Counted from the first letter of the stretch, positions 70 to 37,795 are shown. The stretch is 48,161 bases of DNA from a bacterium (GCA_037144015.1 JBAWXQ010000001.1:1-48161); one strand, 5' to 3'. The notes: generated by a model not told the origin, from the letters alone. A program made the numbers and translations.

Positions 70-214
70 CGACGAAGCGTAGACGACGAAGTGTGGGACG
101 AAGAAAGCGACGAAGTGTGGCGTGGCACGGTTAGCGATGACAGCTAGTTCCCGCGCTTCGTCGCACACTGTAATCGCACACTTCGTCCCACACGTTGTCG
201 TCTACGCTTCGTCG
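70..214. repeat. Long imperfect inverted repeat: 34-nt arms (70-103 and 181-214) built from GACGAAG-type sub-repeats, 77-nt spacer
   Basis: Reverse complement of 181-214 equals 70-103 except 2 mismatches (checked base by base). Confidence 0.85.
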
Positions 215-545: not shown

Positions 546-3500
546 ATGCCAGCCAAAGAGGACAAAATCCCTGATGCAAGTCCGGCGCCGTCGCCGGACT
601 TGCACAGGCGGCTGCGCCGCCGGCTCTGGTTGCTTCTCGCGCTGCTGGCGGCGGTGGGTGCGGCTACGGCTACGGCGCCGACCGGCTGGCTGCCGCGCCT
701 GGCCAACGCCCTGATCTGCGAGTATCTGCGCGTGCGGGACCTCTCCGCCATCCAGGTGCGTGTGGAACGGCTGACCCCCTGGCATTTGCGTGCCGCGCTC
801 CAGTTCGGCACCAACGATCCGGTTTCGCGGATCGAGCGCCTCGAGGCCCGCTTCTCTCCGGGGAGCTTGTGGCGGCATGGCGTTGCGCAGGTGGATGTCG
901 ACGGCGGCCTGCTGCAGTTCCGCACAGCGCCCGGCGGCGTGAGCGTCTGCGGCCTGCCGTCCGGCCTGCGGCGCCTGTCTCCCGGCACGTCGCCGCTCGC
1001 GGACGAGGACGATGTCCCGGTGCGGTGGCAGGTGGGGAAATTGCTGCTGGACAATGTCACCCTGCGCCTGCTGCCCCCGGAGGCCGGCGCCGCGCCGTTT
1101 GACATCTGCCTGCACGCCTCGGCTGTGACCGACCCGCAGGGCGAGACCCGCTTTGCCATCTCGGACTACGGCCGCGCCGGCACGCTGGCCAACGGCGCTT
1201 TCCGGTTCGAGACCGGCGACGGCTGGCTCGTGGCCGTGCTGCCGGAAAGCCAGGTGCAGGAGTGGCTGCGCGTGGCCCAGTGGTTCATGACGAACCCGCG
1301 ATTCCAGGGGAGCGACCTGTGCGCCGGGAACGGCGGCGCCACGCTGCTGGCCCGCATGGAGCAGTGGCGGCCGGCGCTGGTGCAGGGCGATCTCTCGCTG
1401 CGCGCCGCCACGCTGCTCCAGGACTGCAGCTTCACGTACGATCTGCGCCTGCACGGCGTGGCGCAGTGGGAAATGGCGGACAGCCTGCGCCCCACCATCA
1501 CGGCCAACGCGCAAGTCGGTCTGCGCATGGCTTCCTTTCCGGCTTTTGCCTGGTCGGATGACCACGAGCAGCCGGCCAGCGCCAGCGTGGCCGTCAAGCT
1601 GACGCCGCGCAAGGCCGAATGGGAGTGTCAGGTGGCGGCACGCGGGGCGTTGTCGCACGAGGCGGCGCAGGTCAGCGTGCCGACCGGTTCCGTGCAATTG
1701 CCGGAAGCCCCGGTCTTCCGGATCGATGGCGTGTTCACCAGCCCGGACCTGGCGACGTGGGATGGCGCTATCGAGGCCATGGCCATTGTGCCGCAGCCAC
1801 GGCTGCCGGCCGGGGACATGGCGCTGGCCTGCCGCGACCTGGTGGTTCAGGCCACGGCCACGGTGACCCACTCGCAGCCCGCGGTCGTGCGCGGACGTGT
1901 CGATCTTTCCGGGGTTTCGTGCGCCGGCCGCGGCATCCGGCTGGCCGGGGATGCGGGTGTGTCGTTCGGGTCAAGCGCCCCGTTTCAGTGTGCGAACGTG
2001 GCGGTCACGGCCGGCGTGGCGTCGCTGACCCTCCCCGCGGGGGCGGTTTCGTTCGACAAGGATGAACCCCTGCGGATGATCGCATCCGCAACATTGGCGC
2101 GCGCTCCGGACGGACGGGTTTCCGTCTGCGCGGCGGAGCTGAATGTGGCGCCGCAGCAGATGATCACGGGAAATACGCGGCTGGGGCTGCCTGACGGGCT
2201 GCAGTTACGGATGCGCCGCAGCGGAGAGAATCCGGACGGCATGACCGTGGAACTGCTGCCCGCTCCGGTCGCCGGGCAATCCGGCACCGGCATGGCGGCC
2301 ACGGCCTGGGTTTCCGCCGCCGCGTTTGTCGGCCGGCAAAGGAGCAGCACCGTCTCCTGTGGCGATATGACCCTGCGCGTGACGAATGTGCTGTTTCGTG
2401 CCGCTGAGCTGACCGGCGGCGTGGCCAGCGCGGATGTGACTGTGAGTAACGATAAAGCCGGCGGGCTGGCCTCCCGGTCCGCGCCTCGCATCCGCGCGGA
2501 GATTTCAGGTGCCTGGCTGCGCGGCAGGAATGGACTGCAGCTCGATGGGTTGCAGGCGCTGCTGCCGCTGGAATGCGTGGACCGTGAGATTCGCGTGGCC
2601 GGCCTGCCCGGACTGACGTGGCGCAACCTCGAATGCCAGGGCGTGCACCTGGTTCCGGAAGGGTTTGCACTGTCGCTGACCGGGCAGACGGCCGCGGTGC
2701 AGATGTCGGTTGGCGTGCTGGAGGCGAACCTGCATGCCAGCCTTGGCGTGTATGCGGACTGGAGCCGCGCGTGGCAGGTGGCGGTGACCGCGGAGGTGCC
2801 GCCCAGCACGCTGGCTGACACCGAGGCGCTGCGCGGCATGATCTGGCGGCTGGCAGACATGGACCTGGTCGTCACGGGGCAGGTTGCGGCCACGGTGAGC
2901 GCCCTGCTGGCAAAGGATCTGCCGCCAAGCGTAAAAGTGTCCGCCGCTGTCGGGAACCTCGATGTCGGGTGCCTGTCTGGAAAGTGGCAGGTGTCCGGAT
3001 TGTCCGCCGGCCTGACGGCGGATGGCCCGCGCGCCTGGCGCACGCCGCAGGGGCAGGTGTTGACGTTCCGCTCGGCCCGGTCCGGCGACCTGGCTCTTGA
3101 TGGCGGCGCACTGCGCTGGCAGTACCGGCGCGAGGCGCTGCTGGTGGAGCAGGCGGACGTCAACTGGTGCGGCGGCTCACTGCACGCCTTTGGCGTGCCG
3201 TACGACCCGCGCGAACAGCGGCTGGAGACGGTGCTGTACGCCGAGCGGATCGAGCTGGGGCGCCTGATGGCGCAGACCCGGATGCTGCAGGGCTCGGGCG
3301 CGGGGCGGCTGTACGGGCGCCTCCCGCTGACGCTCGACAAGGGGAAGGTGAAGCTGTCGGAGAGCTACCTCTATTCGACGCCCGGCGAGACGGGAAGCCT
3401 CAAGCTTTCCAACACCGCCCCGATCGAGCTGGCCATGGAGCAGGGGAGCATCGATGCCGCCACCCGGCAAAAGGTGAGCGCAGCCCTGCAGAATATGCAA

Positions 3501-3680
3501 TACTCCCTGTTCCGGATGGATCTTTCCGGCGGCGGCGCCAACGCGTCCCTGGGAATTCAAATCGAGGGGCGCGCGGCGGAGGACGCGGCTGCGCCGCCCG
3601 TGCATCTCAACGTGAACCTGGGCGGTTCACTGGATGAGTTCTTTAATTTTGGCATGGACCTGTCACGAAAGCTGCGCTAG
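546..3680 (+). CDS. ydbH: AsmA-like intermembrane phospholipid transport protein, YdbH family (1044 aa)
   Basis: N-terminal TM anchor (LWLLLALLAAVGAA). C-terminal region resembles the YdbH/DctA-YdbH family (GRLYGRLPLTLDKGKVKLSESYLYSTPGETGSLKL). Followed by ynbE- and ydbL-like genes as in the E. coli ydbH-ynbE-ydbL operon. Confidence 0.75.
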   Translation: MPAKEDKIPDASPAPSPDLHRRLRRRLWLLLALLAAVGAATATAPTGWLPRLANALICEYLRVRDLSAIQVRVERLTPWHLRAALQFGTNDPVSRIERLEARFSPGSLWRHGVAQVDVDGGLLQFRTAPGGVSVCGLPSGLRRLSPGTSPLADEDDVPVRWQVGKLLLDNVTLRLLPPEAGAAPFDICLHASAVTDPQGETRFAISDYGRAGTLANGAFRFETGDGWLVAVLPESQVQEWLRVAQWFMTNPRFQGSDLCAGNGGATLLARMEQWRPALVQGDLSLRAATLLQDCSFTYDLRLHGVAQWEMADSLRPTITANAQVGLRMASFPAFAWSDDHEQPASASVAVKLTPRKAEWECQVAARGALSHEAAQVSVPTGSVQLPEAPVFRIDGVFTSPDLATWDGAIEAMAIVPQPRLPAGDMALACRDLVVQATATVTHSQPAVVRGRVDLSGVSCAGRGIRLAGDAGVSFGSSAPFQCANVAVTAGVASLTLPAGAVSFDKDEPLRMIASATLARAPDGRVSVCAAELNVAPQQMITGNTRLGLPDGLQLRMRRSGENPDGMTVELLPAPVAGQSGTGMAATAWVSAAAFVGRQRSSTVSCGDMTLRVTNVLFRAAELTGGVASADVTVSNDKAGGLASRSAPRIRAEISGAWLRGRNGLQLDGLQALLPLECVDREIRVAGLPGLTWRNLECQGVHLVPEGFALSLTGQTAAVQMSVGVLEANLHASLGVYADWSRAWQVAVTAEVPPSTLADTEALRGMIWRLADMDLVVTGQVAATVSALLAKDLPPSVKVSAAVGNLDVGCLSGKWQVSGLSAGLTADGPRAWRTPQGQVLTFRSARSGDLALDGGALRWQYRREALLVEQADVNWCGGSLHAFGVPYDPREQRLETVLYAERIELGRLMAQTRMLQGSGAGRLYGRLPLTLDKGKVKLSESYLYSTPGETGSLKLSNTAPIELAMEQGSIDAATRQKVSAALQNMQYSLFRMDLSGGGANASLGIQIEGRAAEDAAAPPVHLNVNLGGSLDEFFNFGMDLSRKLR

Positions 3681-3737
3681 CAGCTAGTCGGGCTTAGCCT
3701 TTTCGCTGCACAAACTTTTTGCCGACAAAGCTGCTAG
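3677..3737 (+). repeat. Family-P palindromic element, copy P1 (61 bp, CTAG at both ends)
   Basis: CTAGCAGCTAGTCGGGCTTAGCC...TGCCGACAAAGCTGCTAG. Arms pair 9+5 bp. First CTAG contains the ydbH TAG stop. Confidence 0.9.
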
Positions 3738-3751
3738 CAAGGGAGGCGCAG

Positions 3752-3943
3752 ATGAGACTCGCATGGCGACACGCCGGATTTCTGGCGGTAATGGCGGCCG
3801 GCATCCTGGCCGGTGGCTGCTTCAGCGGCCAGATCAAGACCGACAACCAGGTCGAGGTCAAGCCGATTCACATCACGATCGACGTGAACGTGCATGTGCA
3901 GAAGGACCTGGACAGCTTTTTTGGGGACATTGACAAGAAGTAG
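3752..3943 (+). CDS. ynbE: YnbE-like small lipoprotein (63 aa from the ATG at 3752)
   Basis: GGGAGG SD 5 nt upstream. Signal plus lipobox-like ILAGGC. Mature part PIHITIDVNVHVQKDLDSFFGDI parallels E. coli YnbE. Position between ydbH and ydbL. Confidence 0.75.
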   Translation: MRLAWRHAGFLAVMAAGILAGGCFSGQIKTDNQVEVKPIHITIDVNVHVQKDLDSFFGDIDKK

Positions 3944-3975
3944 GGTGTTGCCGCGCGTAAATTGGGAGACAGACC

Positions 3976-4350
3976 ATGAATTACAAGCGAATGATGCTGG
4001 TGGCCGTGACGTTCCTGGGGCTGGCGCTGGCGGCGCAGGCGCAGGGGCTGGATGCGGTGAAGCAGAGCATGCTTGCCCGCAAGCCTGCAGTGGCGCAGCT
4101 GCTGGCGAGCAAGACCGTCGGCGAGAACCGCGACGGTCTGCTGGAGGCGACCGCCAAGGTTGCGGACGCCGACGCGAAGACCGTCGCGGCGGAGAATGCG
4201 GACCGCAAGGCCGTCTACGCGGCGATTGCCGCCAAGAACGGTACGGACGTCGCCAAGGTCGGCCAGTTGCGCGCGGCCGAGATTGCGGCCAGGGCCGAGG
4301 CCGGGACCCTGATCCAGGGCAGGGACGGCACGTGGGCCGGGAAAAAGTAG
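3976..4350 (+). CDS. ydbL: YdbL-like periplasmic protein (DUF1318 family)
   Basis: Signal peptide MLVAVTFLGLALAAQA. ENADRKAVYAAIAAKNGTDVAKVGQLRAAEIAARAEAGTLIQGRDGTW is collinear with E. coli YdbL. GGGAGA SD. Confidence 0.8.
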   Translation: MNYKRMMLVAVTFLGLALAAQAQGLDAVKQSMLARKPAVAQLLASKTVGENRDGLLEATAKVADADAKTVAAENADRKAVYAAIAAKNGTDVAKVGQLRAAEIAARAEAGTLIQGRDGTWAGKK

Positions 4351-4362
4351 CCGGGTCGCGGG

Positions 4363-4401
4363 TCTCTTTCTCTGTGGCCTTTGTGTCCTTCCACTTGGAT
4401 G
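4363..4401 (+). repeat. K-family fragment K1 (right arm only)
   Basis: TCTCTTTCTCTGTGGCCTTTGTGTCCTTCCACTTGGATG matches the right ends of K2 (12925-12961) and K3 (34889-34933). Confidence 0.85.
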
Positions 4402-4406
4402 ATTCC

Positions 4407-4967
4407 ATGTCCTCACCCCCGCGCCTCCTTGACCGCTTTACGCTCCTGGTCGCAACCTGGTTTGGCCTGGGGTATGCGCCGGTGGCCTCTGGAACCTTCG
4501 GCGCGCTGCCCGGCGCGCTGATCGCCTATGTTGTGGCGGTGTTGTCCCTGCACTCCGGTGCTGCGCCGGCGTGGCAGGTGGCCGGGCAGGTGGCGTTTGC
4601 GCTGGTGCTGAGCGGTCTGGCCGTTCCGGTCTGCGATGCCGCGGAGCAGATGCTGGGGACCAAGGACGATGGACGCATCGTGGCGGACGAGACGCTGACC
4701 TTTCCTGTCTGCACCATCGGCCTGCCGCTGGTGACGGCGCCATGGATGCTGGCCGTGGCGTTTGTGGTCAACCGCGTCTGCGACATCATCAAGCCGCCGC
4801 CGGCCCGCCGCCTGCAGGACCTGCACGGAGGCGTCGGCATTGTGATCGACGACTTCATCGCCTGCCTCTACGCGCTCGCCATCAACCACGCCATTTATTG
4901 GAGCGTGGCCTGGCACGGGGCATGTCTGTTTGCCTTCATCCCGGGAATGGCATCCAGCACGCCTTGA
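4407..4967 (+). CDS. pgpA: Phosphatidylglycerophosphatase A
   Basis: LVATWFGLGYAPVASGTFGALPG, DDGRIVADE and VCDIIKPPPAR motifs typical of PgpA. The track ORF from 3894 is a spurious 5' extension. Confidence 0.9.
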   Translation: MSSPPRLLDRFTLLVATWFGLGYAPVASGTFGALPGALIAYVVAVLSLHSGAAPAWQVAGQVAFALVLSGLAVPVCDAAEQMLGTKDDGRIVADETLTFPVCTIGLPLVTAPWMLAVAFVVNRVCDIIKPPPARRLQDLHGGVGIVIDDFIACLYALAINHAIYWSVAWHGACLFAFIPGMASSTP

Positions 4968-5883: not shown

Positions 5884-6000
5884 GTGATCGGTGATCGGTT
5901 GCCAGTGATTGGTAACGGGTAACCGGTGATCGGCGAATGGATCACTGCTCACGGTAACCGATCACCGATCACCGATTACTGATTACTGAGTACCGATCAC
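5884..6000. repeat. Inverted arrays of tandem heptamers: TGATCGG-type units (5885-5947) facing CCGATCA-type units (5958-5999)
   Basis: Left block reads TGATCGG TGATCGG TTGCCAG TGATTGG TAACGGG TAACCGG TGATCGG CGAATGG. Right block reads CCGATCA CCGATCA CCGATTA CTGATTA CTGAGTA CCGATCA. The blocks are mutually complementary. Confidence 0.9.
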
Positions 6001-7411: not shown

Positions 7412-8091
7412 ATATGACGATCCGGATCGCCGGCATGCTCGCCGCATGCTTCTTCCTGCTGTCGGAATTGCAGGCGCAGGAAACCGCCGCGGTGTCGCCC
7501 ACCGGAGGTGTGTCTGTCGCCGCACCTGCCGCCGCACCTGCTGCTGCACCTGTCGCCGTACCTGTCGCCGCACCTGCTGCTGTACCTGTCGCCGCACCTG
7601 TCGCCGCACCTGCGACCACAGGAAAAGTTCATGCGGCCAAGCAGCCGAAAAGCGGCGCCCCCGCTTTTTTCAACCTGTCGGACGGGTCGTCAACCAACGG
7701 CATGACGATCACCTTCGACCGCCTGGAGTTCGACTACAAGGACATGGTCGCGGCCTACGACGGGCATGTGCGCGTTTTGGATTCGCGCTATGACATGATC
7801 TGTGATCGTCTGTTGGTTTTCCTGGAGGGGACCAACCAGATCAAGCAGATCATGGCCATGGGGAATGTGGTCATTACCCAGCCGGACCGGCGGGCAACCT
7901 GCAACCGGGCTGTCTATCAGCGCGCGTCCGAGCAGGTGGAGATGACCGGAAACCCCGTGGTGACCCAGGGTGGAAACCGGCTGGTGGGTGCCAAGATTCG
8001 CATCTGGCTGAATGACCAGCGTGCCGAAGTGGAATCCGGCCGCATGAACCTGGCGACCGAAACCATGAAAAACCGGGAAAGCAAGCCGTGA
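7408..8091 (+). CDS. lptA: LPS transport periplasmic protein LptA (OstA-like), with Ala-Pro-rich linker
   Basis: Signal peptide. OstA-like body ITFDRLEFDYKDMVAAYDGHVRV...ATCNRAVYQRASEQVEMTGNPVVTQGGNRLVGAKIRIWL. GTG at 7408 or ATG at 7414. 4-nt overlaps with both neighbours. Confidence 0.7.
   Translation: MNMTIRIAGMLAACFFLLSELQAQETAAVSPTGGVSVAAPAAAPAAAPVAVPVAAPAAVPVAAPVAAPATTGKVHAAKQPKSGAPAFFNLSDGSSTNGMTITFDRLEFDYKDMVAAYDGHVRVLDSRYDMICDRLLVFLEGTNQIKQIMAMGNVVITQPDRRATCNRAVYQRASEQVEMTGNPVVTQGGNRLVGAKIRIWLNDQRAEVESGRMNLATETMKNRESKP
7519..7614 (+). repeat. In-frame tandem repeat: eight 12-nt units (GCCGCACCTGYY), organised as two 36-nt super-units (7531-7566, 7567-7602)
   Basis: The two 36-mers differ at 2 positions. 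Encodes (A-A/V-P-A/V)n in LptA. Confidence 0.9.

Positions 8092-9693: not shown

Positions 9694-9704
<11 letters not shown>
9408..9704 (+). CDS. ptsH: Phosphocarrier protein HPr / NPr (98 aa)
   Basis: Active-site context NRYGMHVRPAG (His) and GKSIMALMTL (Ser46-type). GGAGAG SD. The track ORF from 9231 is an extension. Confidence 0.85.
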
Positions 9705-11477
<1,773 letters not shown>

Positions 11478-11481
<4 letters not shown>

Positions 11482-11537
11482 CAGCTTGTCGGATTTAGCG
11501 CTTACCTTTACAAACTTTGTGCCGACCAAACTGCTAG
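11478..11537 (+). repeat. Family-P palindromic element, copy P2 (60 bp)
   Basis: CTAGCAGCTTGTCGGATTTAGCG...CAAACTTTGTGCCGACCAAACTGCTAG. First CTAG contains the ptsI TAG stop. Confidence 0.9.
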
Positions 11538-12783: not shown

Positions 12784-13006
12784 AAGGCGGGCGTCAGCCC
12801 GCAACCCGACAATTGCACAACTCGAGGACACTGAGAGCACCAAGAGTAACAGAGATCACAGAGAAATTCCCGACTGCGGCCGGCGATTCGGCCGCAGCAG
12901 TATGAATTCTCTCTGTGCTCTCTATCTTTCTCTGTGACCTCTGTGTCCTTCCACTTGGATGCCCAACATACACGCAAAAACGTGTATGTTGACTGGAAAG
13001 GTGCTA
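12784..13006 (+). repeat. K-family composite element, full copy K2 (~223 bp)
   Basis: Left hairpin GCGGGC-GTCA-GCCCGC. Imperfect palindrome of CACAGAG/CTCTGTG arms around CTGCGGCCG-GCGATT-CGGCCGCAG. Right hairpin ACATACACG-N6-CGTGTATGT. Alignable by eye over its full length with 34756-34981. Confidence 0.9.
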
Positions 13007-15189: not shown

Positions 15190-16788
15190 ATGCGGATTGA
15201 GACCTGCGACTATTTTGTGGCTGGCAGCGGCATCGCCGGCCTGATGAGCGCCCTCCACCTGGCCCCGCACGGACGCGTGCTGCTGGCCACCAAGAAGGAT
15301 TCGGCCGAAAGCAACACCAATTACGCCCAGGGCGGCATTGCCTGCGTCATGGATCCGGGCGACAGCTTTGAGCAGCATGTGGCCGACACGCTGGACGCGG
15401 GCGCGGGGCTGTGCGACGAGCCGGTGGTGCGGCGTATTGTGACCGATGCGCCGGCGCGCATCGCCGAGCTGCAAAAGCTCGGCGTGCAGTTTGCCGCGCG
15501 CGCCGACGGCCAGCCCGGGTACGACCTGGGGCGCGAGGGCGGCCATTCCAACCGCCGCGTGCTGCACGCCGGCGACATCACCGGGCAGCAGATCGAAGGC
15601 GCGCTGCTGCACGCCGTGCAGACGCACCCCAACATCCGCCTCGTGGATCATGCGCTGCTCATCGACCTGATCACCACCCACTGGCTGCGCCGGCCGGGCG
15701 ACAACCGCTGCGTGGGCGCCTACGTGCTCGACCGCCGCAGCGGCGAAATTTTCGCCGTGCGCGCACCCTGGACCATCCTCGCCACCGGCGGCTGCGGCAA
15801 GGTCTACCTCTACACCAGCAACCCGGACATCGCCACCGGCGACGGCGTGGCCGTGGCCTGGCGCGCCGGGGCGGCCGTGGCCAACATGGAGTTCATCCAG
15901 TTCCACCCCACCTGCCTCTACCACCCCAAGGCGAAGAGCTTCCTGATCAGCGAGGCCGTGCGCGGCGAGGGCGCCGAACTGGTGGACCGCGAGGGGCGCC
16001 CCTTCATGACGCGCTACGACCCGCGCGGATCCCTGGCCCCGCGTGACATCGTCGCCCGCGCCATCGACGCGGAGATGAAGCGCACGGCCGCGCCCTACTG
16101 CTGCCTCGACATCCGCCACAAGACGCGGGCGTTCCTGCAGACGCGATTTCCAAACATCTATGCCTCCTGCGAACGCTTCGGCATCGACATGGCGGCGGAC
16201 CTGATTCCGGTGGTGCCCGCCGCGCACTACTGCTGCGGCGGCGTGCAGGCGGGGGTGGATGGCGTCACGTCGCTTCCCGGCCTGCTGGCCGTGGGCGAAG
16301 TGGCCAGCACCGGGCTGCACGGCGCCAACCGGCTGGCCAGCAATTCCCTGCTCGAGGCGCTGGTCTGCGCCCACGCCATGGCGGACCGGCTGGTCGGGCG
16401 GCCGCGACCGCCGGCCGTGGACCAGGCCAGGATCCCGGACTGGGAATACGGCGACGCCGTGCCCAGCGACGAGCAGGTGGTGGTGTCGCACAACTGGAAC
16501 GAAGTGCGCACCAACATGTGGGACTATGTCGGCATCGTGCGCACCAACAAGCGGCTGGAGCGCGCGCAGCGCCGCATCCGCATGCTGCGCGAGGAGATCC
16601 GGCAGTATTACTTCGATTACCTGGTCACCGCCGACATGCTGGAACTGCGCAACATCGCCGACGCGTCGGAGCTCATCGTGCGCAGCGCCATGCGCCGCCA
16701 CGAGAGCCGCGGCCTGCACTACACGCTGGACTTCCCGGACAAGCTGACGCAGGCGCGCGACACGGTGCTGGCCGGACGGAAAAGCTAG
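15190..16788 (+). CDS. nadB: L-aspartate oxidase
   Basis: FAD fold VAGSGIAGL, NTNYAQGGIA, HPTCLYHP, LISEAVRGEGA and GLHGANRLASNSLLE. Confidence 0.95.
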   Translation: MRIETCDYFVAGSGIAGLMSALHLAPHGRVLLATKKDSAESNTNYAQGGIACVMDPGDSFEQHVADTLDAGAGLCDEPVVRRIVTDAPARIAELQKLGVQFAARADGQPGYDLGREGGHSNRRVLHAGDITGQQIEGALLHAVQTHPNIRLVDHALLIDLITTHWLRRPGDNRCVGAYVLDRRSGEIFAVRAPWTILATGGCGKVYLYTSNPDIATGDGVAVAWRAGAAVANMEFIQFHPTCLYHPKAKSFLISEAVRGEGAELVDREGRPFMTRYDPRGSLAPRDIVARAIDAEMKRTAAPYCCLDIRHKTRAFLQTRFPNIYASCERFGIDMAADLIPVVPAAHYCCGGVQAGVDGVTSLPGLLAVGEVASTGLHGANRLASNSLLEALVCAHAMADRLVGRPRPPAVDQARIPDWEYGDAVPSDEQVVVSHNWNEVRTNMWDYVGIVRTNKRLERAQRRIRMLREEIRQYYFDYLVTADMLELRNIADASELIVRSAMRRHESRGLHYTLDFPDKLTQARDTVLAGRKS

Positions 16789-16984: not shown

Positions 16985-17563
16985 ATGCACAAGCCCAATC
17001 CCAAACGGATCGAGAAGCTTGTACGGCAACTCCTCGTCGAACTGGGAGAAGATCCGCAGCGCGAAGGGTTGCGCGACACGCCGCAGCGCGTGGCCCGCTC
17101 CTATGAGTTCCTGACCAGCGGCTACCGCCAGTCTCCCCGCCACGTGGTCAACGAGGCGATCTTCGAGTCGCACGCGAACAACATGATCATCGTGCGCGAC
17201 ATCGAGGTTTATTCCCTTTGCGAGCACCACCTGCTGCCCTTCTACGGCCGGTGCCACGTGGGCTACGTGGCGGAGGACAAGGTTGTCGGCGTCAGCAAGA
17301 TTGCGCGGCTCGTGGATTGCTTCGCGCGCCGGTTGCAGGTGCAGGAGCGCCTCACCGAACAGGTGGCCGAGGCGGTCATGACGATGGCCGGTGCCGAAGG
17401 CGTCGGTGTGGTCATGGAATGCCGTCACCTGTGCATGATGATGCGCGGCGTGCAGAAGCAGAACTCCGTGATGACGACATCCTCCGTGCTCGGCAGTTTC
17501 CGCCGCCGCGGCACCACGCGCGCCGAGTTTCTCAGCCTGATCAATGCGCCGTTCCGCGGGTAA
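16985..17563 (+). CDS. folE: GTP cyclohydrolase I
   Basis: [30 protein letters not shown] and QVQERLT motifs. Confidence 0.95.
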
Positions 17564-17624
17564 GCTTCGTGCTGTTTCAGTCCGGGCAACCGGAGTGCGG
17601 CCGGGCGGAAAAGGAAACACGCAC

Positions 17625-18512
17625 ATGAAGCCCGCCCCCGTGCATACCACCGTCGGCTTCATCGGCACCGGCGTCATGGGGCGATCCATGGCCGGGCATC
17701 TGCTGGATGCCGGGCATCACCTGCTGGTCTATAACCGGTCCCGTGACAAGGCCGGCGACCTGCTCCGGCGCGGTGCCGTGTGGTGCGACACGCCCGCCGC
17801 CCTGGCCGCCGGATGCGATGTGGTGTTCACCATCGTCGGGTTTCCCGCGGATGTGGCGGAGGTCTACCTCGGCGGGCACGGGCTGGTGGCGCATGCCCGG
17901 CCGGGCGCCGTCCTGGTCGACATGACCACCTCCAGCCCGTCCCAGGCAGAGCAGATTGCGGCCGCGGCCGCGGCGCGCGGCGTCTTCGCGCTGGATGCGC
18001 CGGTCACCGGCGGTGACAAGGGCGCACGCGAGGCCACGCTGGCCATTCTGGTTGGCGGTGACCCGGCGGCTTTTGCGCACGTGCGGCCGCTGCTGGCGCT
18101 CATGGGAAAAACGATCGTGCACCTGGGCGCGGCCGGCTGCGGCCAGCACGCGAAGCTGGCCAACCAGATCGCCATTGCCGGCACGATTCAGGGCGTGTGC
18201 GAGGCGCTGGCCTATGCGCAGGGCATGGGGCTCGATACCGCCAGGCTGCTGGATGCGATCGACAGCGGCGCGGCCGGCAGCTGGCAGCTGCGCAACGTCG
18301 GCCCCAAGATGCTGAGCGGCGACTTCGCCCCGGGCTTTTTCGTGAAGCATTTTGTCAAGGACATGACCCTGGCCCTGGATGCGGCGAGCCGCGCCGGCAT
18401 CGAACTGCCGGCGCTGAAGCTCGCGCGGGATCGCTACGCCGAGTTGGCCACCGCCGGCGGGGCGGAACTCGGCACGCAGGGGATTTTTCGCGAATACGAC
18501 GAAAAATCCTAG
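17625..18512 (+). CDS. NAD(P)-dependent oxidoreductase, 3-hydroxyisobutyrate/2-hydroxy-3-oxopropionate reductase family
   Basis: Rossmann VGFIGTGVMGRSMAGHL. DAPVTGGDKGAREATLAILVGG. KLANQIAIAG. KDMTLALD. Start at the ATG at 17625 after AAGGAAA. Confidence 0.85.
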   Translation: MKPAPVHTTVGFIGTGVMGRSMAGHLLDAGHHLLVYNRSRDKAGDLLRRGAVWCDTPAALAAGCDVVFTIVGFPADVAEVYLGGHGLVAHARPGAVLVDMTTSSPSQAEQIAAAAAARGVFALDAPVTGGDKGAREATLAILVGGDPAAFAHVRPLLALMGKTIVHLGAAGCGQHAKLANQIAIAGTIQGVCEALAYAQGMGLDTARLLDAIDSGAAGSWQLRNVGPKMLSGDFAPGFFVKHFVKDMTLALDAASRAGIELPALKLARDRYAELATAGGAELGTQGIFREYDEKS

Positions 18513-18569
18513 CAGCCGGGTCGGCAGACGATGGCTGTCTCCACACGGCTAAGCCCGACTGGCTGCTAG
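18509..18569 (-). repeat. Family-P palindromic element, copy P3 (61 bp, inverted relative to P1)
   Basis: The reverse complement starts CTAGCAGCCAGTCGGGCTTAGCC, 22/23 identical to P1. The left CTAG holds the plus-strand TAG at 18510-18512. The right CTAG holds the minus-strand TAG at 18568-18566. Confidence 0.9.
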
Positions 18570-18859: not shown

Positions 18860-18889
18860 CAACAAAGGTTTTCCGGAACGGAAAACCTA
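18860..18889 (-). terminator. Hairpin terminator candidate for amtB-glnK (AGGTTTTCC-GTTCC-GGAAAACCT, then TTGTTGG)
   Basis: 9-bp stem whose first two nt are the AG of the glnK TAG stop, followed by a U-rich tail. Confidence 0.55.
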
Positions 18890-19228
18890 GCCGATGGCCG
18901 CGCCGCCGGTTTCGCCCGTGCGCACGCGGATGCACTCGCTCATCTCGAGCACAAAGATCTTCCCGTCGCCGATCTCGCCGGTCCTGGCGCCGTTCAGAAT
19001 CGCGTCCACGGCAGCCTTGAGGTAGTCGTCGTTGACGGCGATCTCCAGCTTTACCTTCTTGAGCAGGCTGCCGGCTTCGCAGTGGCTCCGGTAGACCGTG
19101 GCGATCCCTTTCTGTCGGCCGCGCCCCATTACGTTTGACACGGTAACCAGGTGAATTTCCTTCTGCTCAAGCAGGTCCAGCACGTGATCCAGGCGGTCCG
19201 GCTGAATGATCGCAATAACGTACTTCAT
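18887..19228 (-). CDS. glnK: P-II family nitrogen regulatory protein
   Basis: MKYVIAIIQP..., T-loop GRGRQKG, C-terminal TGEIGDGKIFV...IRVRTGE. Immediately downstream of amtB. Confidence 0.9.
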   Translation of the reverse strand: MKYVIAIIQPDRLDHVLDLLEQKEIHLVTVSNVMGRGRQKGIATVYRSHCEAGSLLKKVKLEIAVNDDYLKAAVDAILNGARTGEIGDGKIFVLEMSECIRVRTGETGGAAIG

Positions 19229-19258: not shown

Positions 19259-19284
19259 CGGCGGCGGCCATCCGGCCGCCGCCG
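19259..19284 (-). other. 11-bp GC hairpin in the amtB-glnK spacer (CGGCGGCGGCC-N4-GGCCGCCGCCG)
   Basis: Perfect complementarity checked base by base. Confidence 0.8.
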
Positions 19285-19287
19285 CGA

Positions 19288-19310
19288 AGGATTCGCGGAA
19301 CGCGAATCCT
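19288..19310 (-). other. 10-bp hairpin overlapping the amtB stop codon (AGGATTCGCG-TTC-CGCGAATCCT on the mRNA)
   Basis: The stem starts with the AG of the TAG stop at 19311-19309. Confidence 0.8.
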
Positions 19311-20739
19311 AGTCCAGCATGGTGTATCCGGCTTCCTTGTGCTGCGTCAGGTCGAGGCCGATGCGCTCCTCGTGCTCCGACACGCGCAGCCCGACAAGTT
19401 TGTCAACCAGCTTGAACAGGATAAACGAAACCACGGCGGAGTAGACAACGGTGACGAGCACCGCCTTGACCTGCAGCAGGAACTGGCCCGGGTTGCCGTA
19501 CAGCAGGCCGTCGCAGCCGTTGATGGCCTTGTCGGCGAAAATCCCGGTCGCCAGGGCGCCGAAAATGCCGCCGATGCCGTGCACGCCAAAGGCGTCCAGC
19601 GAGTCGTCATACCCGCATTTGTTCTTGAGGAACGTGACCGCCAGCCAGCAGCAGATCGCCGCGCCCAGCCCGATCCAGATCGCGCTCATGGGCGAGACAA
19701 AGCCGCAGGCCGGTGTGATGGCCACCAGCCCGGACACGGCGCCCGAGATCACCCCCAGCGTGGTCGCGCGGCGGTGGTAGACCCAATCGCACAGCACCCA
19801 GCCCAGGCCGGCGACGGCCGTGGCAATGTGCGTGGTGACAAAGGCGTTACCGGCCAGTCCGTTGGCCGCCAGGGCGCTGCCGGAATTGAAGCCGAACCAG
19901 CCGAACCAGAGCAGCCCGGCGCCCAGTACGGCGAACGGCAGGTTGTGCGGCGGCGAGGATGTGCCCACGCGCTTGCGCAGCAGGACCGCCGATACCAGCG
20001 CCGCAATGCCCGCGTTGATGTGCACCACCGTGCCGCCGGCGAAGTCCAGCGCGCCCGCCCTGGCGTTTCCGGCCGCGTCAAACCGCGACAGGAAGCCCCC
20101 GAGACCCCAGACCCAGTGCGCCACCGGGTCGTACACCAGCGTGGCCCAGAGCACGATGAAGAGGCAGAACGCCGAGAACTTCATCCGCTCGGCAAACGCG
20201 CCGAGGATCAGCGCAGGCGTGATCACCGCGAACATCGCCTGGAAGATCATGAAGACGGAGTGGGGGATCGTTGCGGAGTACCCCGCGAACGGATCGCCGC
20301 CCACATGCCGCAGGAAGGCCCAGTCCAGGTTGCCGATGACCCCTTTCACGTCCGGCCCAAACGCCAGCGTATAGCCGAACAGCGCCCACTGGAGCGTCAC
20401 GAGGCAGATCACGATGAAGCACTGCATGAGGATCGACAGCACGTTCTTTTTGCGGACCAGTCCGCCATAAAAGAACGCCAGGCCGGGCGTCATCAGCAGC
20501 ACCATCGCCGAGGCTGTCAGCACCCAGGCCGTGTCACCCGCGCTGAGGGTGGAAGCCGGAGCCGCCGCTGGCGCGGCAGGCGGGGCAATGACCGGTGATG
20601 TGCCCGCAACTCCGGCAGGTGCCGTTACGGCAGCAGGTGCGGCAGGCGTGGCGTCTGCACCCTGTGCCTGCACCTTTGCAGCAACAAAAAAACAAGCTAG
20701 GAAACCAGCCGCCGTCAGGATTCGGAATCGTGTTCTCAT
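19309..20739 (-). CDS. amtB: Ammonium transporter AmtB with signal peptide and Ala/Pro-rich N-terminal spacer
   Basis: GLAFFYGGLVRKKN, DFAGGTVVHINAGIAAL, GWFGFNSGSAL and DDSLDAFGVHGIGGIFG. Start ATG at 20739 or 20745, after an AAGGGGGG SD. Confidence 0.95.
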   Translation of the reverse strand: MRTRFRILTAAGFLACFFVAAKVQAQGADATPAAPAAVTAPAGVAGTSPVIAPPAAPAAAPASTLSAGDTAWVLTASAMVLLMTPGLAFFYGGLVRKKNVLSILMQCFIVICLVTLQWALFGYTLAFGPDVKGVIGNLDWAFLRHVGGDPFAGYSATIPHSVFMIFQAMFAVITPALILGAFAERMKFSAFCLFIVLWATLVYDPVAHWVWGLGGFLSRFDAAGNARAGALDFAGGTVVHINAGIAALVSAVLLRKRVGTSSPPHNLPFAVLGAGLLWFGWFGFNSGSALAANGLAGNAFVTTHIATAVAGLGWVLCDWVYHRRATTLGVISGAVSGLVAITPACGFVSPMSAIWIGLGAAICCWLAVTFLKNKCGYDDSLDAFGVHGIGGIFGALATGIFADKAINGCDGLLYGNPGQFLLQVKAVLVTVVYSAVVSFILFKLVDKLVGLRVSEHEERIGLDLTQHKEAGYTMLD

Positions 20740-21007: not shown

Positions 21008-21045
21008 GAGCGAAAACAGAAAGATTTTGCGGCAGCAAAATCTTA
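21008..21045 (-). terminator. Rho-independent terminator of the SorE-like dehydrogenase gene
   Basis: mRNA reads TAA-GATTTTGC-TGCC-GCAAAATCTT-TCTGTTTTCG. 10-bp stem beginning with the AA of the TAA stop, then a U-rich tail. Confidence 0.75.
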
Positions 21046-22526: not shown

Positions 22527-23339
22527 ATGTACACAATCCTGATCAGTCTTCTCCTGGGCATATCGGTGAGCGCAACCCTCTGGTTCACGCACGCCACACA
22601 GCACCGGGTCTGGGTGGCGGTGTGGGGCCTGCTGGGGGTTATTGCCGGCCAGATTTCGCTCGGGCTGATCCTGCGCCGCAAGATTAAAAAGGCGATGGAC
22701 GCCGTGCAGAATGTGCTCCTGTCGGGGCAGAAGAAGCTGCAGCAGAAGATCAGCCACTGGCAGATGCGGCCGCCGGGAAGCCTCAAGCAGGCGCAGCTCG
22801 AAATGGAGCGCGACCAGCGCGTCTTCATCGAACAGGCGCTGGAAGCCTCGAAAGGGATGGAGAAATTTGTCCGCTGGACGCTGATGCTGGACCGGCAGAT
22901 CGCCACCCTGCGCATGCAGCTTCACTACCAGCTCAAGGAGTATCGCAAGGTGGATGCCCTTCTGCCCAAGTGCATGTTCATGGACCCCATGACCGCGGCC
23001 ATGAAGCTCGCCCGCCTGCATGTGCGCGATGAAAGGACGGAGGCCGCGAAGTTCTTCCACAAGCAGACCCGGCGCCTGCGCTACGGGCAGGGGGCGATCC
23101 TGTACGCGCTCTACGCCTGGATGCTGGTGCAGCGGCAGGAGACGGAAGCCGCGCACAAGCTGCTGGTGCGCGCCTGCGAGAAGATGGAAAACGAGGTCCT
23201 CAAGGCCAACCGCGACCATCTGGCCAACAACCGCCTCAACCAGTTCTCCAATGCCGGCCTGTCCGAGGAATGGTATGCGCTCGGGCTCGAGCAGCCCAAG
23301 GTCAAGATGCAGCGCCAGCGCCACCCGGGGCAGTACTAG
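22527..23339 (+). CDS. Hypothetical membrane protein: two N-terminal TM helices plus a ~200-aa helical domain
   Basis: Clean 270-codon frame with no competing recognisable gene on the opposite strand. TM1 ILISLLLGISVSATLWF and TM2 VWVAVWGLLGVIAGQISLGLIL. No family recognised. Confidence 0.6.
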   Translation: MYTILISLLLGISVSATLWFTHATQHRVWVAVWGLLGVIAGQISLGLILRRKIKKAMDAVQNVLLSGQKKLQQKISHWQMRPPGSLKQAQLEMERDQRVFIEQALEASKGMEKFVRWTLMLDRQIATLRMQLHYQLKEYRKVDALLPKCMFMDPMTAAMKLARLHVRDERTEAAKFFHKQTRRLRYGQGAILYALYAWMLVQRQETEAAHKLLVRACEKMENEVLKANRDHLANNRLNQFSNAGLSEEWYALGLEQPKVKMQRQRHPGQY

Positions 23340-30479: not shown

Positions 30480-30541
30480 CTAGCAGCCTGTCGGATTTAG
30501 GTTTTGCGTCTGCACACGGTTCGTGCCGACCAGGCTGCTAG
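30480..30541 (+). repeat. Family-P palindromic element, copy P4 (62 bp)
   Basis: CTAGCAGCCTGTCGGATTTAGG...GTGCCGACCAGGCTGCTAG. Not adjacent to a CDS. Confidence 0.9.
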
Positions 30542-30605
30542 TTAGTGGGACGCAACCGCCAAGCACTGGACAAGAGTGAAATACGCAACAAAAGAACAGC
30601 CGGAA
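30542..30605 (+). repeat. G-module extension (second copy)
   Basis: TTAGTGGGACGCAACCGCCAAGCACTGGACAAGAGTG...CAAAAGAAC aligns with 11538-11598. Confidence 0.8.
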
Positions 30606-30632
30606 CAATTTTTCTGTCTGTAACTGAGTCTT

Positions 30633-30847
30633 CGCAACCCGCGGGCAGCGGGTTGCACAACTAGGAGACTGTCGGCAGAAGGCCCTGGACCGATCCGAGG
30701 CCTAAGTCCGACAGCCTCCTAGGACACCGAGAGCACAGAGAGGAATAGAGGGCACAGAGGAATTCCTGTCTGCGGCCGGCTTCCCGGCCCGGGCAAGCAG
30801 AAATTGACTCTGCGCTCTCATTTGATCTCGGTGCCCTCTGTGTCCTT
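30633..30847 (+). repeat. K-family element K4 (variant) carrying nested P5
   Basis: CGCAACCCGCGGGCAGCGGGTTGCACAA-[P5]-GGACACCGAGAGCACAGAG...GGTGCCCTCTGTGTCCTT. Confidence 0.8.
30661..30722 (-). repeat. Family-P palindromic element, copy P5 (62 bp, divergent termini CTAGGAG.../...CTCCTAG), nested in K4
   Basis: CTAGGAGACTGTCGGCAGA...GGCCTAAGTCCGACAGCCTCCTAG. The interior matches the P3 orientation. Left and right terminal changes are compensatory. Confidence 0.85.
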
Positions 30848-35061: not shown

Positions 35062-37752
35062 ATGGACAAGCACTACGATCCCAAGGCCGTGGAGGCCAAA
35101 TGGTACGCCTGGTGGGAGGCGCAGGGCTTTTTTCATGCCGACCTCGCGCAGGGCGGTGAGCCGTACTGCGTGATGATCCCGCCGCCGAATGTGACCGGCA
35201 TCCTGCACATGGGCCACGCGCTCAACAACACCGTCCAGGACATCCTGGTGCGCTGGCGCCGCATGCAGGGGCGCAACACCCTCTGGATGCCGGGCACGGA
35301 CCATGCCGGCATTGCCACGCAGAACGTGGTGGAAAAGGCGCTGCGCAAGGAGGGCTCCGGGCGGCATGAACTGGGACGCGAGGCGTTTGTCGAGCGCGTC
35401 TGGTCCTGGCGCAGGGAGTACGGCGGCACGATCGTGCGCCAGCTGCGCCAGCTCGGCGCCAGCTGCGACTGGCCGCGCGAGCGCTTCACCATGGACGAGG
35501 GGATGAGCGCGGCCGTGGCCGAAGTCTTCTGCCGCCTCTACAACGAGGGGCTGATCTACCGCGGTAACTACATCGTGAACTGGTGCCCGCGCTGCCACAC
35601 CGCGCTCTCGGACGAGGAGAGCGAGCACCAGGAGACGCAGGGGAGCCTCTGGCACATCCGCTACCCCGTGTCGGACGGCACCTTTGTGACCGTGGCCACG
35701 ACGCGCCCCGAGACCCTGCTCGGCGACACGGCCGTGGCCGTCAACCCGAAGGACGAGCGCTACGCCGGCCTGCACGGCAAGACGGTCCTGCTGCCGATCC
35801 TCGGCCGCGCGCTGCGCGTGGTGGCCGACGACTACGTGGACGCCGCGTTCGGCACGGGCGTGGTGAAGATCACCCCGGCCCACGACCCCAACGATTTTCA
35901 GGTGGCGCAACGCCACGGCCTGCCGTCCCTGAACGTGATGAACGGCGACGGCACCATGAACGAGGCCGCCGGCCCGTACGCGGGCATGGACCGGTTTGCC
36001 TGCCGCAAGAAACTCGTGGCCGACCTGGAGGCCCAGGGGCTGCTGGACAGGGTCGAGCCGCACCTGCACGCCGTGGGCCACTGCTACCGCTGCGACACCG
36101 TGGTCGAGCCGCGGCTTTCGCTGCAGTGGTTTGTGCGCATGAAGCCGCTGGCCGGCGCGGCCATTGAAGCGGTCCGCGGCGGGCAGGTGCAGTTCACCCC
36201 AAAACGCTGGGAAAAGACCTACCTCGACTGGATGGAAAACATCCGCGACTGGTGCATCTCGCGCCAGATCTGGTGGGGGCACCGCATCCCGGTCTACACC
36301 TGCGGCGGCTGCCGGCACGAATGGGCCGCGCCCGCCGCGCCGGCGTCCTGCACGAAGTGCGGCGCCGGCAGCAGCGCCATCACGCAGGATCCGGACGTGC
36401 TCGACACCTGGTTCTCCTCGTGGCTCTGGCCGTTCAGCACGCTGGGGTGGCCGCAGAAAACCGCGGAGCTGGAAAAATACTACCCGTCGCACGACCTGGT
36501 GACCGCCCCGGAGATCATCTTCTTCTGGGTGGCGCGCATGATCATGGCCGGCTGCAAGTTCATGGGCGAGCCGCCGTTCCGCAACGTGTACATCCACGGC
36601 ACGGTGCGCGACGACCGCGGCCGCAAGATGAGCAAGAGCCTCGGCAACTCCATCGACCCGCTCGACATCATCGAGCAGTACAGCGCCGACGCGCTGCGCT
36701 TCAGCATGATGATGATCACGGCCACCGGCCAGGACGTCCAGGTCAACCTGGACAAGTTCGAGATCGGCCGCAACTTCGGCACCAAGATCTGGAACGCCGC
36801 GCGCTTCCTGCAGCTGCACATGGAAAAGACGGCCGGGCTCGACTGGCGCGCGCTGGCCACCGCCGCGCCGCAGCTTGATCCGGCGCGGCTCACGGATGAC
36901 GACCGCCACCTGCTGGCCAAGGGCGATGCGGCGGTGCGCCTGCTGACCGCCCACCTGGAGCAGTTCCGCTTCCAGGACGGCGCGCGCCTCCTGTACGACT
37001 TTGTCTGGAGCGACTTCTGCGACTGGTATGTCGAGTATGCCAAGGGCGACCTCTACGGCGAAGATGCCGCGCGCCGCGAGCAGGTGCTGCGCCTGATGAC
37101 GCACGTGTTTGCAAACATCCTGAAGCTGCTCCACCCCTACATGCCGTTCCTCACCGAAGAGCTCTGGCACGCCATGGGGTACGCCACGGCGGAAGAGACC
37201 ATCCTGCTGGCGCCGTGGCCGCTGTCGCTGGCAGAGGCCGCTGCGGCCGCATATGGCCTGGGCGACGCCACCACCGCCTATGTGGAGGCCAAGCACGAGC
37301 TGATTGGCGCGGGGCGCACCCTGCGCGCCGAGTACGGCATTGCTCCGGCCAAGCTGATTCGCTACGTGATCCACACCGTGGACGCGGCCACGGCGGCGCG
37401 GTTCGAGCTCGACCGGCGTCCGCTGCTGGCGCTCCTGCGCGCCGAGGCCGTGGAGATCGTCTCCGGTGGCGAGGCCTGCGGCATGCCCGGCGCGCTGGGC
37501 AAGCTCGGCACCATCTACCTGCCGCTGGCCGGCCTGATCGACGTGCCGGCCGAGGTCACGCGCGTGCGGGGAGAGCTGTCCAAGTCTCGCGGCTTCCTGC
37601 AGGGCGTCGAGTCCAAGCTGGCCAACGAATCCTTTGTCGCCAAGGCGCCGCCGCAGGTCATCGAGCAGCAGCGTGCGAAGCGGGTGGAGCTGACGGAAAC
37701 CATCGCCCGGCTGGAGCGCCTGGAGAAGACGCTGCAGGCCGTGGGATCCTAG
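35062..37752 (+). CDS. valS: Valine-tRNA ligase
   Basis: PPPNVTGILHMGHAL (HIGH), KMSKSLGN (KMSKS), the editing domain, and a C-terminal coiled coil. Confidence 0.97.
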   Translation: MDKHYDPKAVEAKWYAWWEAQGFFHADLAQGGEPYCVMIPPPNVTGILHMGHALNNTVQDILVRWRRMQGRNTLWMPGTDHAGIATQNVVEKALRKEGSGRHELGREAFVERVWSWRREYGGTIVRQLRQLGASCDWPRERFTMDEGMSAAVAEVFCRLYNEGLIYRGNYIVNWCPRCHTALSDEESEHQETQGSLWHIRYPVSDGTFVTVATTRPETLLGDTAVAVNPKDERYAGLHGKTVLLPILGRALRVVADDYVDAAFGTGVVKITPAHDPNDFQVAQRHGLPSLNVMNGDGTMNEAAGPYAGMDRFACRKKLVADLEAQGLLDRVEPHLHAVGHCYRCDTVVEPRLSLQWFVRMKPLAGAAIEAVRGGQVQFTPKRWEKTYLDWMENIRDWCISRQIWWGHRIPVYTCGGCRHEWAAPAAPASCTKCGAGSSAITQDPDVLDTWFSSWLWPFSTLGWPQKTAELEKYYPSHDLVTAPEIIFFWVARMIMAGCKFMGEPPFRNVYIHGTVRDDRGRKMSKSLGNSIDPLDIIEQYSADALRFSMMMITATGQDVQVNLDKFEIGRNFGTKIWNAARFLQLHMEKTAGLDWRALATAAPQLDPARLTDDDRHLLAKGDAAVRLLTAHLEQFRFQDGARLLYDFVWSDFCDWYVEYAKGDLYGEDAARREQVLRLMTHVFANILKLLHPYMPFLTEELWHAMGYATAEETILLAPWPLSLAEAAAAAYGLGDATTAYVEAKHELIGAGRTLRAEYGIAPAKLIRYVIHTVDAATAARFELDRRPLLALLRAEAVEIVSGGEACGMPGALGKLGTIYLPLAGLIDVPAEVTRVRGELSKSRGFLQGVESKLANESFVAKAPPQVIEQQRAKRVELTETIARLERLEKTLQAVGS

Positions 37753-37795
37753 CAGCTTGCCGGGCGCAGCCTTTGCGCTTCAAAACTTTGTATGG
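37749..37795 (+). repeat. Family-P element, degenerate copy P6 (left arm and loop only)
   Basis: CTAGCAGCTTGCCGGGCGCAGCCTTTGCGCTTCAAAACTTTGTATGGAG. The CTAG holds the valS TAG. The right arm is missing. Confidence 0.75.

Follow-up and report, generated by a model that had tools for sequence, protein, structure and literature searches.

Insertion of IS5 duplicates YTAR, most often CTAG (PMC5493358), and MITEPsy1, a miniature inverted-repeat element of Pseudomonas syringae derived from the IS5-family ISPsy2, is 100 nt long and is flanked by a 4-nt CTAG/YTAA duplication (PMC3189936). According to Tenzen and Ohtsubo 1990/91 (cited in PMC2170065), the target of IS630 is the TA of CTAG. REP sequences are defined differently, by an unpaired GTAG at one end of a 20-40-bp palindrome (PMC3733652, PMC8266576), and hairpins of the Correia and ERIC type can alter transcript processing or stability (PMC10969869).

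We compared with these systems a 61-bp palindromic element lying between ydbH and ynbE in a 48,161-nt stretch of bacterial DNA (the window, that is, the whole stretch analysed). It resembles MITEPsy1, which is small and non-coding, and IS5 in having inverted repeats and a duplicated CTAG (CTAG or YTAA/YTAR in those systems; PMC3189936, PMC5493358). MITEPsy1, however, has 18-nt repeats starting GGAAGG within its 100 nt, few copies and a known parent IS, whereas the present element has 61 nt, other arms, a high copy number and no parent that we could find, and may duplicate only TA. IS630/Tc1-mariner elements and their MITEs likewise insert at TA and duplicate it, with IS630 preferring the TA of CTAG (cited in PMC2170065). 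A TA duplication of the IS630 type around an element proper of the form G...C would give CTAG at both ends, as seen, but we found no IS630-family transposase or matching inverted repeat, and only the target signature links the element to this family.

Other high-copy palindromic MITEs are the Correia elements of Neisseria and the ERIC/IRU sequences of Enterobacteria and Yersinia, which lie beside or between genes, are co-transcribed and form long hairpins in mRNA (PMC10969869). Their length is 100-160 bp, and promoters or IHF sites are present in some of them, in contrast to the 61 bp, lack of a promoter-like site, strict CTAG ends and marked stop-codon association seen here. REP, BIME and REPIN sequences share with our element hairpin repeats at gene 3' ends, mosaics, ends that overlap or supply TAG stops (PMC3733652) and compensatory stem changes, and are known for roles in mRNA 3'-end protection. 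Unlike them, the present element lacks the unpaired GTAG tag and has a self-complementary, base-paired CTAG at both ends; the arms of the 61-bp unit pair with each other, whereas each REP unit is its own palindrome; and we found no RAYT in the ORFs scanned and empty sites that behave like a target duplication. The family belongs to a known kind, the small palindromic repeats of MITE/REP-like type, and has CTAG as its target.

An element inserted into the ydbH stop codon

The element reads CTAGCAGCTAGTCGGGCTTAGCCTTTTCGCTGCACAAACTTTTTGCCGACAAAGCTGCTAG in the window, and its coordinates and those of the surrounding features are listed in Table 1. The 57-nt core consists of inverted arms CAGCNNGTCGG ... 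CCGACNNNGCTG with some 30 nt of variable sequence between them; after the left arm comes the family motif GCTTAG (3692-3697), and the ydbH copy is solo, with no module alongside. Sequence and fold (-22.5 kcal/mol, z = -2.8) agree with the original prediction of a CTAG-bounded element whose arms pair over 9 + 5 bp. Also as predicted, the TAG at 3678-3680 within the first CTAG closes the 1044-codon frame of ydbH (ORF 546-3680), 14 nt separate the element's last base (3737) from the ynbE ATG (3752), and the position inside a ydbH-ynbE-ydbL operon is borne out by the PF11739 ORF upstream and by an ORF in the ynbE position and a PF07027 match downstream.

The arm pattern CTAGCAGCNNGTCGG has 12 matches in the window at up to 2 mismatches (5 of the 12 exact) against 2.07 expected, and none of 100 shuffled windows reached 12. 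A chance palindrome was rejected on this excess over shuffles and on the profile HMM matches given below. Furthermore, in the metagenomes that contain the window genome, contigs stop precisely at 3677 and at 3736/3737, and the 61 bp have 12-16 times the depth of their flanks (X1), as is expected for a dispersed repeat with those boundaries. The identical 61 bp (100%) stand at ydbH in four other assemblies of the same species, and a further (fifth) same-species contig stops inside the ydbH copy, a typical repeat-caused assembly break. All five assemblies carry the element, and no empty allele of the junction was found within the species.

Table 1. Positions of the ydbH-ynbE-ydbL genes, the element and its relatives, counted from the first base of the window
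Feature	Position	Strand	Remarks
ydbH (1044 codons)	546..3680	+	PF11739 YdbH-like; C-terminus unaltered by insertion
61-bp element	3677..3737	+	57-nt core between two CTAGs, of which one (or only its TA) is the target-site duplication
Left arm CTAGCAGCTAGTCGG	3677..3691	+	Includes ydbH stop TAG 3678-3680
Right arm CCGACAAAGCTGCTAG	3722..3737	+	Pairs with left arm, 9 + 5 bp
ynbE ribosome-binding site GGGAGG	3741..3746	+	Outside the element; homologous to the site in relative L028
ynbE, 63 aa	3752..3943	+	No Pfam match; named from its position between ydbH and ydbL (synteny)
ydbL (DUF1318, PF07027)	3976..4350	+	Pfam match
Family copy	11478..11537	+	Left CTAG is the stop of ptsI (9694-11481)
Unoccupied CTAG stop of L-aspartate-oxidase-like gene	16785..16788	+	A related strain has an element starting exactly there
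Family copy, inverted	18509..18569	-	CTAG 18509 is the stop of a 3-hydroxyisobutyrate-dehydrogenase-like gene (17544-18512)
Composite	30480..30722	.	Element (+) 30480-30541, 119-nt module, element (-) 30661-30722
Partial copy, left arm and centre only	37749..37787	+	CTAG is the stop of valS (35062-37752)

The element had been proposed to donate the ydbH stop codon. Relatives without the element contradict this, for they end ydbH at the same codon, and the stop is the native target. In relative L030 (YdbH 60% identical) the junction reads AAA CTA CGC TAG gaattcac ATG, that is, K-L-R-TAG with a bare CTAG and an 8-nt gap; in relative L028 (YdbH 70% identical) it reads AAG TTG CAG TAA cggcagggaggcgcgc ATG, that is, K-L-Q-TAA with a 16-nt gap; and on a third relative contig without the element (YdbH 57% identical) the gap is 18 nt. 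With 57 nt and one CTAG taken out, the window junction becomes AAG CTG CGC TAG caagggaggcgcag ATG, collinear with the relatives including the ribosome-binding site, and the last YdbH residues agree with those of L030 and L028. The original prediction had set an insertion against a conserved operon structure, and the 8-18 nt between ydbH and ynbE in relatives decide for the insertion, although these element-free junctions come from distant relatives only (57-70% protein identity). A metagenome scan anchored on the protein gave one relative only.

The aligned junctions demonstrate that the ydbH copy was inserted into an existing CTAG in which the ydbH stop already lay, with CTAG or its central TA duplicated. 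The target duplication regenerated the TAG. Hence neither the stop nor the C-terminus of YdbH nor the ribosome-binding site of ynbE was disrupted, while the ydbH-ynbE spacer grew from about 14 nt before insertion (as reconstructed) to 71 nt now. A stop that overlaps the end of the repeat is here a preserved target and not a repeat-derived truncation, and YdbH is full length.

Other loci point the same way. A gene ending GAC TAG in the metagenome-assembled genome (MAG) ELA687 has an element where its window ortholog, ending GAG TAG at the same codon, has none. In a strain 97% identical to the window, contig X8 matches up to 16788 and then enters an element at a site that is empty in the window, a polymorphism seen from the left junction only. 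Adjacent elements have one CTAG in common; with the one bare CTAG of the empty ydbH junction, this is what target duplication leaves. A comparison of locus L022 with the window downstream of an alcohol dehydrogenase gene was set aside because the C-termini differ.

Family members, mosaics and CTAG targets

A profile HMM made from 54 family members and run on the whole window returned five full copies, at 3677, 11478, 18509, 30480 and 30661 (E 1e-12 to 1e-14), one partial copy at 37749-37787 (E 0.046) and none beyond these six sites, which are exactly the six members originally listed. The copies lie in both orientations (4 plus, 2 minus) and have CTAG at every intact end, as had been claimed; GC skew is positive along the entire window. 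They are 66% identical overall and 48% in the centre, the arms being far better conserved, and the one at 30661-30722 belongs to the CTAGGAG subfamily.

Further copies elsewhere, the subject of a check named with the original prediction, proved to be many. An exact two-arm pattern scan of species-representative genomes gave at least 26 loci in ELA687 and at least one in ELA597; in the genes common to both, ELA687 and the window have only about 80-83% identity, and ELA687 is therefore another species. A tolerant scan, which took in the window and the loci listed from the exact scan (about 226 kb, two species), yielded 56 full copies, with flanks that are unique on the outward-facing (gene) side. 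We found three arm subfamilies (CAGCC/GGCTG, GAACC/GGTTC and GAGAC/GTCTC). The CTAG ends, TGTCGG/CCGACA and a TAG (mostly CTTAG) just inside one arm are invariant (CTAG, GTCGG and TAG over 54 copies), and the internal TAG gives each copy a polarity. Across 15 arm pairs 98.2% of cells are paired (52 distinct copies), four arm columns change on both sides together in a compensatory manner, and a bulged base is conserved in one subfamily. CTAG stands at 120 of 123 arm ends, the exceptions being TTAG (2) and ATAG (1); in two copies just one end reads CTAG and the opposite end is CTAA or CTAT, and nested insertions and truncations also occur at internal TTAG.

Element 31-mers were found in more than 10 freshwater, lake and sediment metagenome studies, and in one DNA run (X23) the depth of the element is about 1000 times that of its flanks. 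The copy number is at least in the dozens and probably in the hundreds. By contrast, no copy was found by profile HMM in 22.7 kb from each of two sister lineages (ValS 85-87% identical), where CTAG counts are 1 and 8. These results demonstrate that the family, as far as sampled, is confined to one freshwater Kiritimatiellia lineage, and it constitutes a previously undescribed, very abundant family of small mobile elements in Kiritimatiellia.

The intergenic DNA of the host genomes is a BIME-like mosaic, in which the repeats cluster with other conserved motifs in fixed relative orientation. A recurrent composite has two inverted elements, with their CTTAG-bearing arms outward, around a CTAG-bounded module of 118-150 nt; the architecture of 30480-30722 recurs in ELA687 loci L007, L011, L013, L022 and L027, and the recurrent module after the 11478-11537 copy is 81% identical to the module after 30541. 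One module starts with a hairpin GCAACCCGC-N5-GCGGGTTGC, which is also present in the 119-nt module of 30480-30722; another has inverted ends of its own, GGAAACCCGCCG; and some CTAG-bounded modules have no inverted repeats of their own. The short GC hairpin of the first of these modules adjoins an element, 3-4 nt from a CTAG, in all 21 of its occurrences. The arm bearing CTTAG faces the gene in a ratio of 24:1, a bias that a palindromic target alone does not predict and that we interpret as mostly due to the inverted-pair composites.

CTAG is strongly under-represented in the window: there are 22 occurrences per strand, where base composition predicts about 150 and a Markov estimate about 36, and 11 of the 22 sit within family elements. 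TAG is, unusually, the commonest stop, at 21 of 37 window gene ends (57%), and nine of these read C-TAG. Of the 56 copies, 23-26 have an outer CTAG that serves as stop to a long, high-GC3 ORF. In the window, four of the nine C-TAG stops are occupied and none of the 12 remaining TAG stops (p = 0.02). As there is some circularity in this test, the weight rests on the orthologous comparisons above. With CTAG rare in a 66% GC genome, C-TAG stops would be a main supply of targets, TAG being the commonest stop, and we infer that the stop-codon association follows from target choice. An element landing in a stop would do no harm, since the duplication re-creates the stop codon and both neighbouring genes stay whole. 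C-TAG stops would in this way be safe landing sites, a simple account of repeats gathering exactly at gene ends.

As a separate observation, the presence of the family coincides with TAG-dominated stops, and the element-free sister lineages are not so: the TAG share is 57% in the window and 13-22% in those lineages.

Movement of the family and effect on the operon

We consider that the 61-bp sequence is probably a non-autonomous, MITE-type mobile element inserted at the CTAG that holds the ydbH stop. Small, non-coding and multi-copy units with differing flanks, terminal inverted repeats, CTAG duplication, subfamilies and a lineage-restricted burst constitute a MITE signature, and the predominance of CTAG at arm ends is the target feature of IS630-type and IS5-type elements. 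A DDE transposase acting in trans would move the family, with a target choice that may be IS630-like (TA within CTAG) or IS5-like (4-bp YTAR, mostly CTAG); the CTAG/CTAA and CTAG/CTAT copies lean slightly towards a TA duplication, with the element beginning with G and ending with C.

An autonomous copy or cognate IS with matching ends was not found in the window, in 27 ELA687 loci or in plasmid or viral collections. No transposase or RAYT (Y1/HUH) was seen in the scanned window ORFs or between distant inverted arm pairs, where the ORFs are housekeeping genes (radical SAM, MiaB-like, melibiase and NYN), and a PHROG sweep of 104 ELA687 ORFs gave no transposase among the best 25 of 51 families. 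Plasmid searches (near mode with the locus, distant mode with the composite consensus) showed no similarity, and viral contigs gave no match.

Three resemblances to known elements were set aside. The GAGACTGTC arm recalls an end of ISPsy17, a coincidence, as ISPsy17 is an IS256-family element with 8-bp duplications; the resemblance to the ends of IS5 and Sleeping Beauty is too weak to use; and integron attC sites and Xer/dif modules were rejected since the ends are CTAG and not GTTRRRY and the copies lie in inverted pairs and not in uniform orientation.

We regard it as unlikely, although still credible, that the family is of the REP/REPIN type, in which a domesticated HUH tyrosine transposase (RAYT/TIRYT-like) would recognise the hairpin in single-stranded DNA and spread it, with CTAG serving as a guide or cleavage context like GTAG in classical REPs and with no true target duplication. 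A structure-selected element of this kind would look alike in having arms better conserved than the centre and four compensatory columns, and the long imperfect hairpin with conserved stem ends and variable centre and the bulged base kept in one subfamily are in line with it, as are the BIME-like mosaics with other modules, such as the GC hairpin next to CTAG. However, the unpaired GTAG at one end of a 20-40-bp palindrome is missing, and CTAG stands at both ends and within the stem. That no DDE transposase turned up in the ORFs scanned speaks for a REP-like origin, but neither did a RAYT in about 270 kb examined. GTAG termini of REPs are reported to be a frequent source of TAG stops, and RAYT-like genes flanked by long inverted repeats instead of REPs exist (TIRYTs; both PMC3733652). 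Against this, empty CTAG sites and one CTAG common to neighbours are exactly the outcome of a target duplication, and the copies occur in mixed orientations on one replication strand, which strictly strand-specific insertion would not give. Non-autonomous transposition with target duplication is the reading that we favour.

For the operon, we found no terminator-like site in 3300-4500 and no promoter match; the element has no U-tract, its hairpin being followed by CAAGGGAGG, and an intrinsic terminator was rejected for lack of a U-tract and of a terminator match. Rfam covariance models gave no match at E <= 1 in 3550-3850, and only tRNAs scored above the gathering threshold in the whole window. 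The hairpin persists when folded in context, with the ynbE ribosome-binding site unpaired in the centroid fold. Metatranscriptome contigs at the ydbH locus cover 3149-3343 only; some contigs of family members pass from unique upstream sequence into the element, indicating that these copies are transcribed together with the gene before them. Within the ydbH-ynbE-ydbL transcript, the element is predicted to form a hairpin of about -22 kcal/mol that lacks a U-tract. By lengthening the spacer to 71 nt, the insertion could plausibly loosen translational coupling, or it might hold up 3' exonucleases, as is possible for REPs and for ERIC and Correia elements (PMC10969869). If 3'-end protection, processing or coupling were affected, this would be incidental; the presence of the element can be explained with no regulatory role, since unrelated genes also have it at their C-TAG stops.

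A REP effect on mRNA is known from the malEFG operon. By analogy, the ydbH-ynbE hairpin might have been retained because it tunes the operon and sets the YdbH:YnbE:YdbL ratio, through 3'-exonuclease protection of ydbH, a processing site or uncoupling of ynbE from ydbH translation; we find this distinctly unlikely. The hairpin is stable and is kept in the context fold, but its stem is only 9 + 5 bp with bulges, and typical RNase III substrates are longer. Five assemblies from different samples carry the copy, which is fixed, at 100% identity, although such agreement within a single species tells little about selection. Metatranscriptome contigs of the family are compatible with a role in mRNA, yet those at this locus include nothing at the element, and a U-tract, terminator match and promoter match are all missing. 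There are precedents in RNase III processing at Correia elements and transcript-level effects of ERIC (PMC10969869). Here, however, the ynbE ribosome-binding site is unpaired and outside the element, relatives run the same operon with an 8-18-nt spacer, and the same element after ptsI, valS and the dehydrogenase gene means that CTAG alone explains its position. The ydbH copy is an ordinary selfish repeat that kept a native stop.

It is highly doubtful, in our judgement, that the family represents a CTAG-tagged third REP-like class beside GTAG and CGTC, spread by an unrecognised HUH enzyme, with an expansion causally tied to the shift of the lineage to TAG; if true, stop-codon usage and a selfish repeat family would be co-evolving. 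Scarcely credible is an account with no transposition, in which CTAG-bounded modules are shuffled by BfaI-like cutting and re-ligation or are host-protein sites TGTCGG...CCGACA: several unrelated mosaic modules are CTAG-bounded, some without inverted repeats of their own, and TGTCGG/CCGACA is invariant while adjacent arm positions vary, but no such enzyme or protein was found, the truncations and nested insertions at internal TTAG are unusable by a CTAG-specific cutter, and the strong orientation rule in composites is not expected from random re-ligation.

The host lineage

Only freshwater and lake metagenomes matched the window. The named relatives of its ValS all belong to Kiritimatiellia (64-74% identity), one YdbH homolog is labelled Kiritimatiellia, and an exact-sequence look-up of the P-II protein gave no match; the ValS comparison places the host in Kiritimatiellia. 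Little work has been done on this PVC lineage, for which MAGs are the main source. The window is housekeeping chromosome, with kdsB, kdsA, lptB, hpf, ptsI, parB, folE, glnB-amtB, hom, lysC and valS among other genes, and no mobile-element genes were seen among its scanned ORFs. The split of a ydbH-ynbE junction that measures 8-18 nt in relatives by a 57-nt hairpin offers a natural experiment on the coupling and stoichiometry of YdbH-YnbE-YdbL lipid transport. In addition, the family breaks assemblies at gene ends.

Composite and chimeric CTAG elements

We found a recurrent composite of ~243 bp in which a 119-nt module lies between two CTAG elements (~61-bp palindromic repeats with CTAG at both ends) in inverted orientation. 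Two species, that of the window and that of the MAG ELA687, have this composite in conserved form (see table), and its module comprises a GC hairpin and a conserved tail, the end of which is GCTTGCCCCATGA. When the composite was compared with Rfam, nothing scored above threshold (sub-threshold matches, E 0.14 and 0.93); a larger MITE, a remnant of a parent IS and a small RNA are all candidates for its identity.

Two CTAG elements in ELA687 (L002 1287-1348 and L007 1155-1216) were chimeric, with a left arm of the CAGCC subfamily and a right arm of GGTTC or GTCTC, a pattern suggesting either that elements have recombined with one another or that mixed pairs of arms have been mobilised. In one sister lineage, otherwise without this family, a PhoU-like gene has CTAGCTGCCCGTCGGAC at its stop (L032/L033 6612-6665; profile E = 2.6); this sequence could be a decayed left arm or a chance match.

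Stop codons and associated hairpins

TAG was the commonest stop codon at gene ends in the window (21/37, with 10 TGA and 6 TAA), which is unusual in a 66% GC bacterium. In the element-free relatives, by comparison, TGA was dominant and TAG closed 2/15 (L031) and 4/18 (L032) genes (Fisher p = 0.0013). The window's preference may be tied to CTAG-targeting repeats, or to hairpins with TAG in the foot. At six places in the window (see table), stop codons fall in the 5' foot of small hairpins that are related to one another and share an A/T-rich core, such as TAGGTTTTCCGTTCCGGAAAACCTTTG, TAGGATTCGCGTTCCGCGAATCC, TAAGATTTTGCTGCCGCAAAATCTTTCTGTTTT and TAGATTTTGCGTACCGCAAAATCTA; the hairpins may serve as compact terminators or form a second family of REP-like elements, with TAG/TAA as its tag.

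Comparison of the valS end (window 37749-37791; L031 12640-12770; L032 12640-12845) revealed that the window protein extends one residue further at its end than in relatives (…GS* vs …G*). The window stop lies within a truncated CTAG element, whose right half is absent immediately before a NERD-domain gene, and the element may have slightly changed the protein's C-terminus.

Repeat features by location
Feature	Position	Strand	Source
~243 bp composite	30480-30722		window
~243 bp composite	L007, L011, L013, L022, L027		ELA687
Stop-bearing small hairpin	18860-18890	-	window
Stop-bearing small hairpin	19280-19312	-	window
Stop-bearing small hairpin	21010-21045	-	window
Stop-bearing small hairpin	23336-23366	+	window
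Stop-bearing small hairpin	28328-28360	-	window
Stop-bearing small hairpin	40722-40745	+	window
Further palindromic repeat	70-214		window
Further palindromic repeat	4347-4402		window
Further palindromic repeat	5891-6000		window
Further palindromic repeat	12784-12962		window
Further palindromic repeat	30723-30859		window
Further palindromic repeat	31726-31772		window
Further palindromic repeat	34756-34935		window

Other repeats

The window holds further families of palindromic intergenic repeats made of reiterated short motifs, namely of the types GACGAAG, GATCGGT/GATTAC (between kdsB and kdsA) and CACAGAG. Relatives of these in ELA687 sit as insertions at TAG/TTAG sites within CTAG elements. 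A 12-nt tandem repeat of ~11 CTGTCGCCGCAC-like units (window 7502-7633), between a kdsA-adjacent ORF and lptB, possibly encodes a linker rich in Pro/Ala within a protein that resembles LptA/LptC. ELA687 also carries a second very high-copy repeat (~85-115 bp; L017 6668-6786), with a sequence not related to that of the CTAG element; this repeat reached a depth of up to ~9000 vs ~4 in the metagenome DNA run X23.
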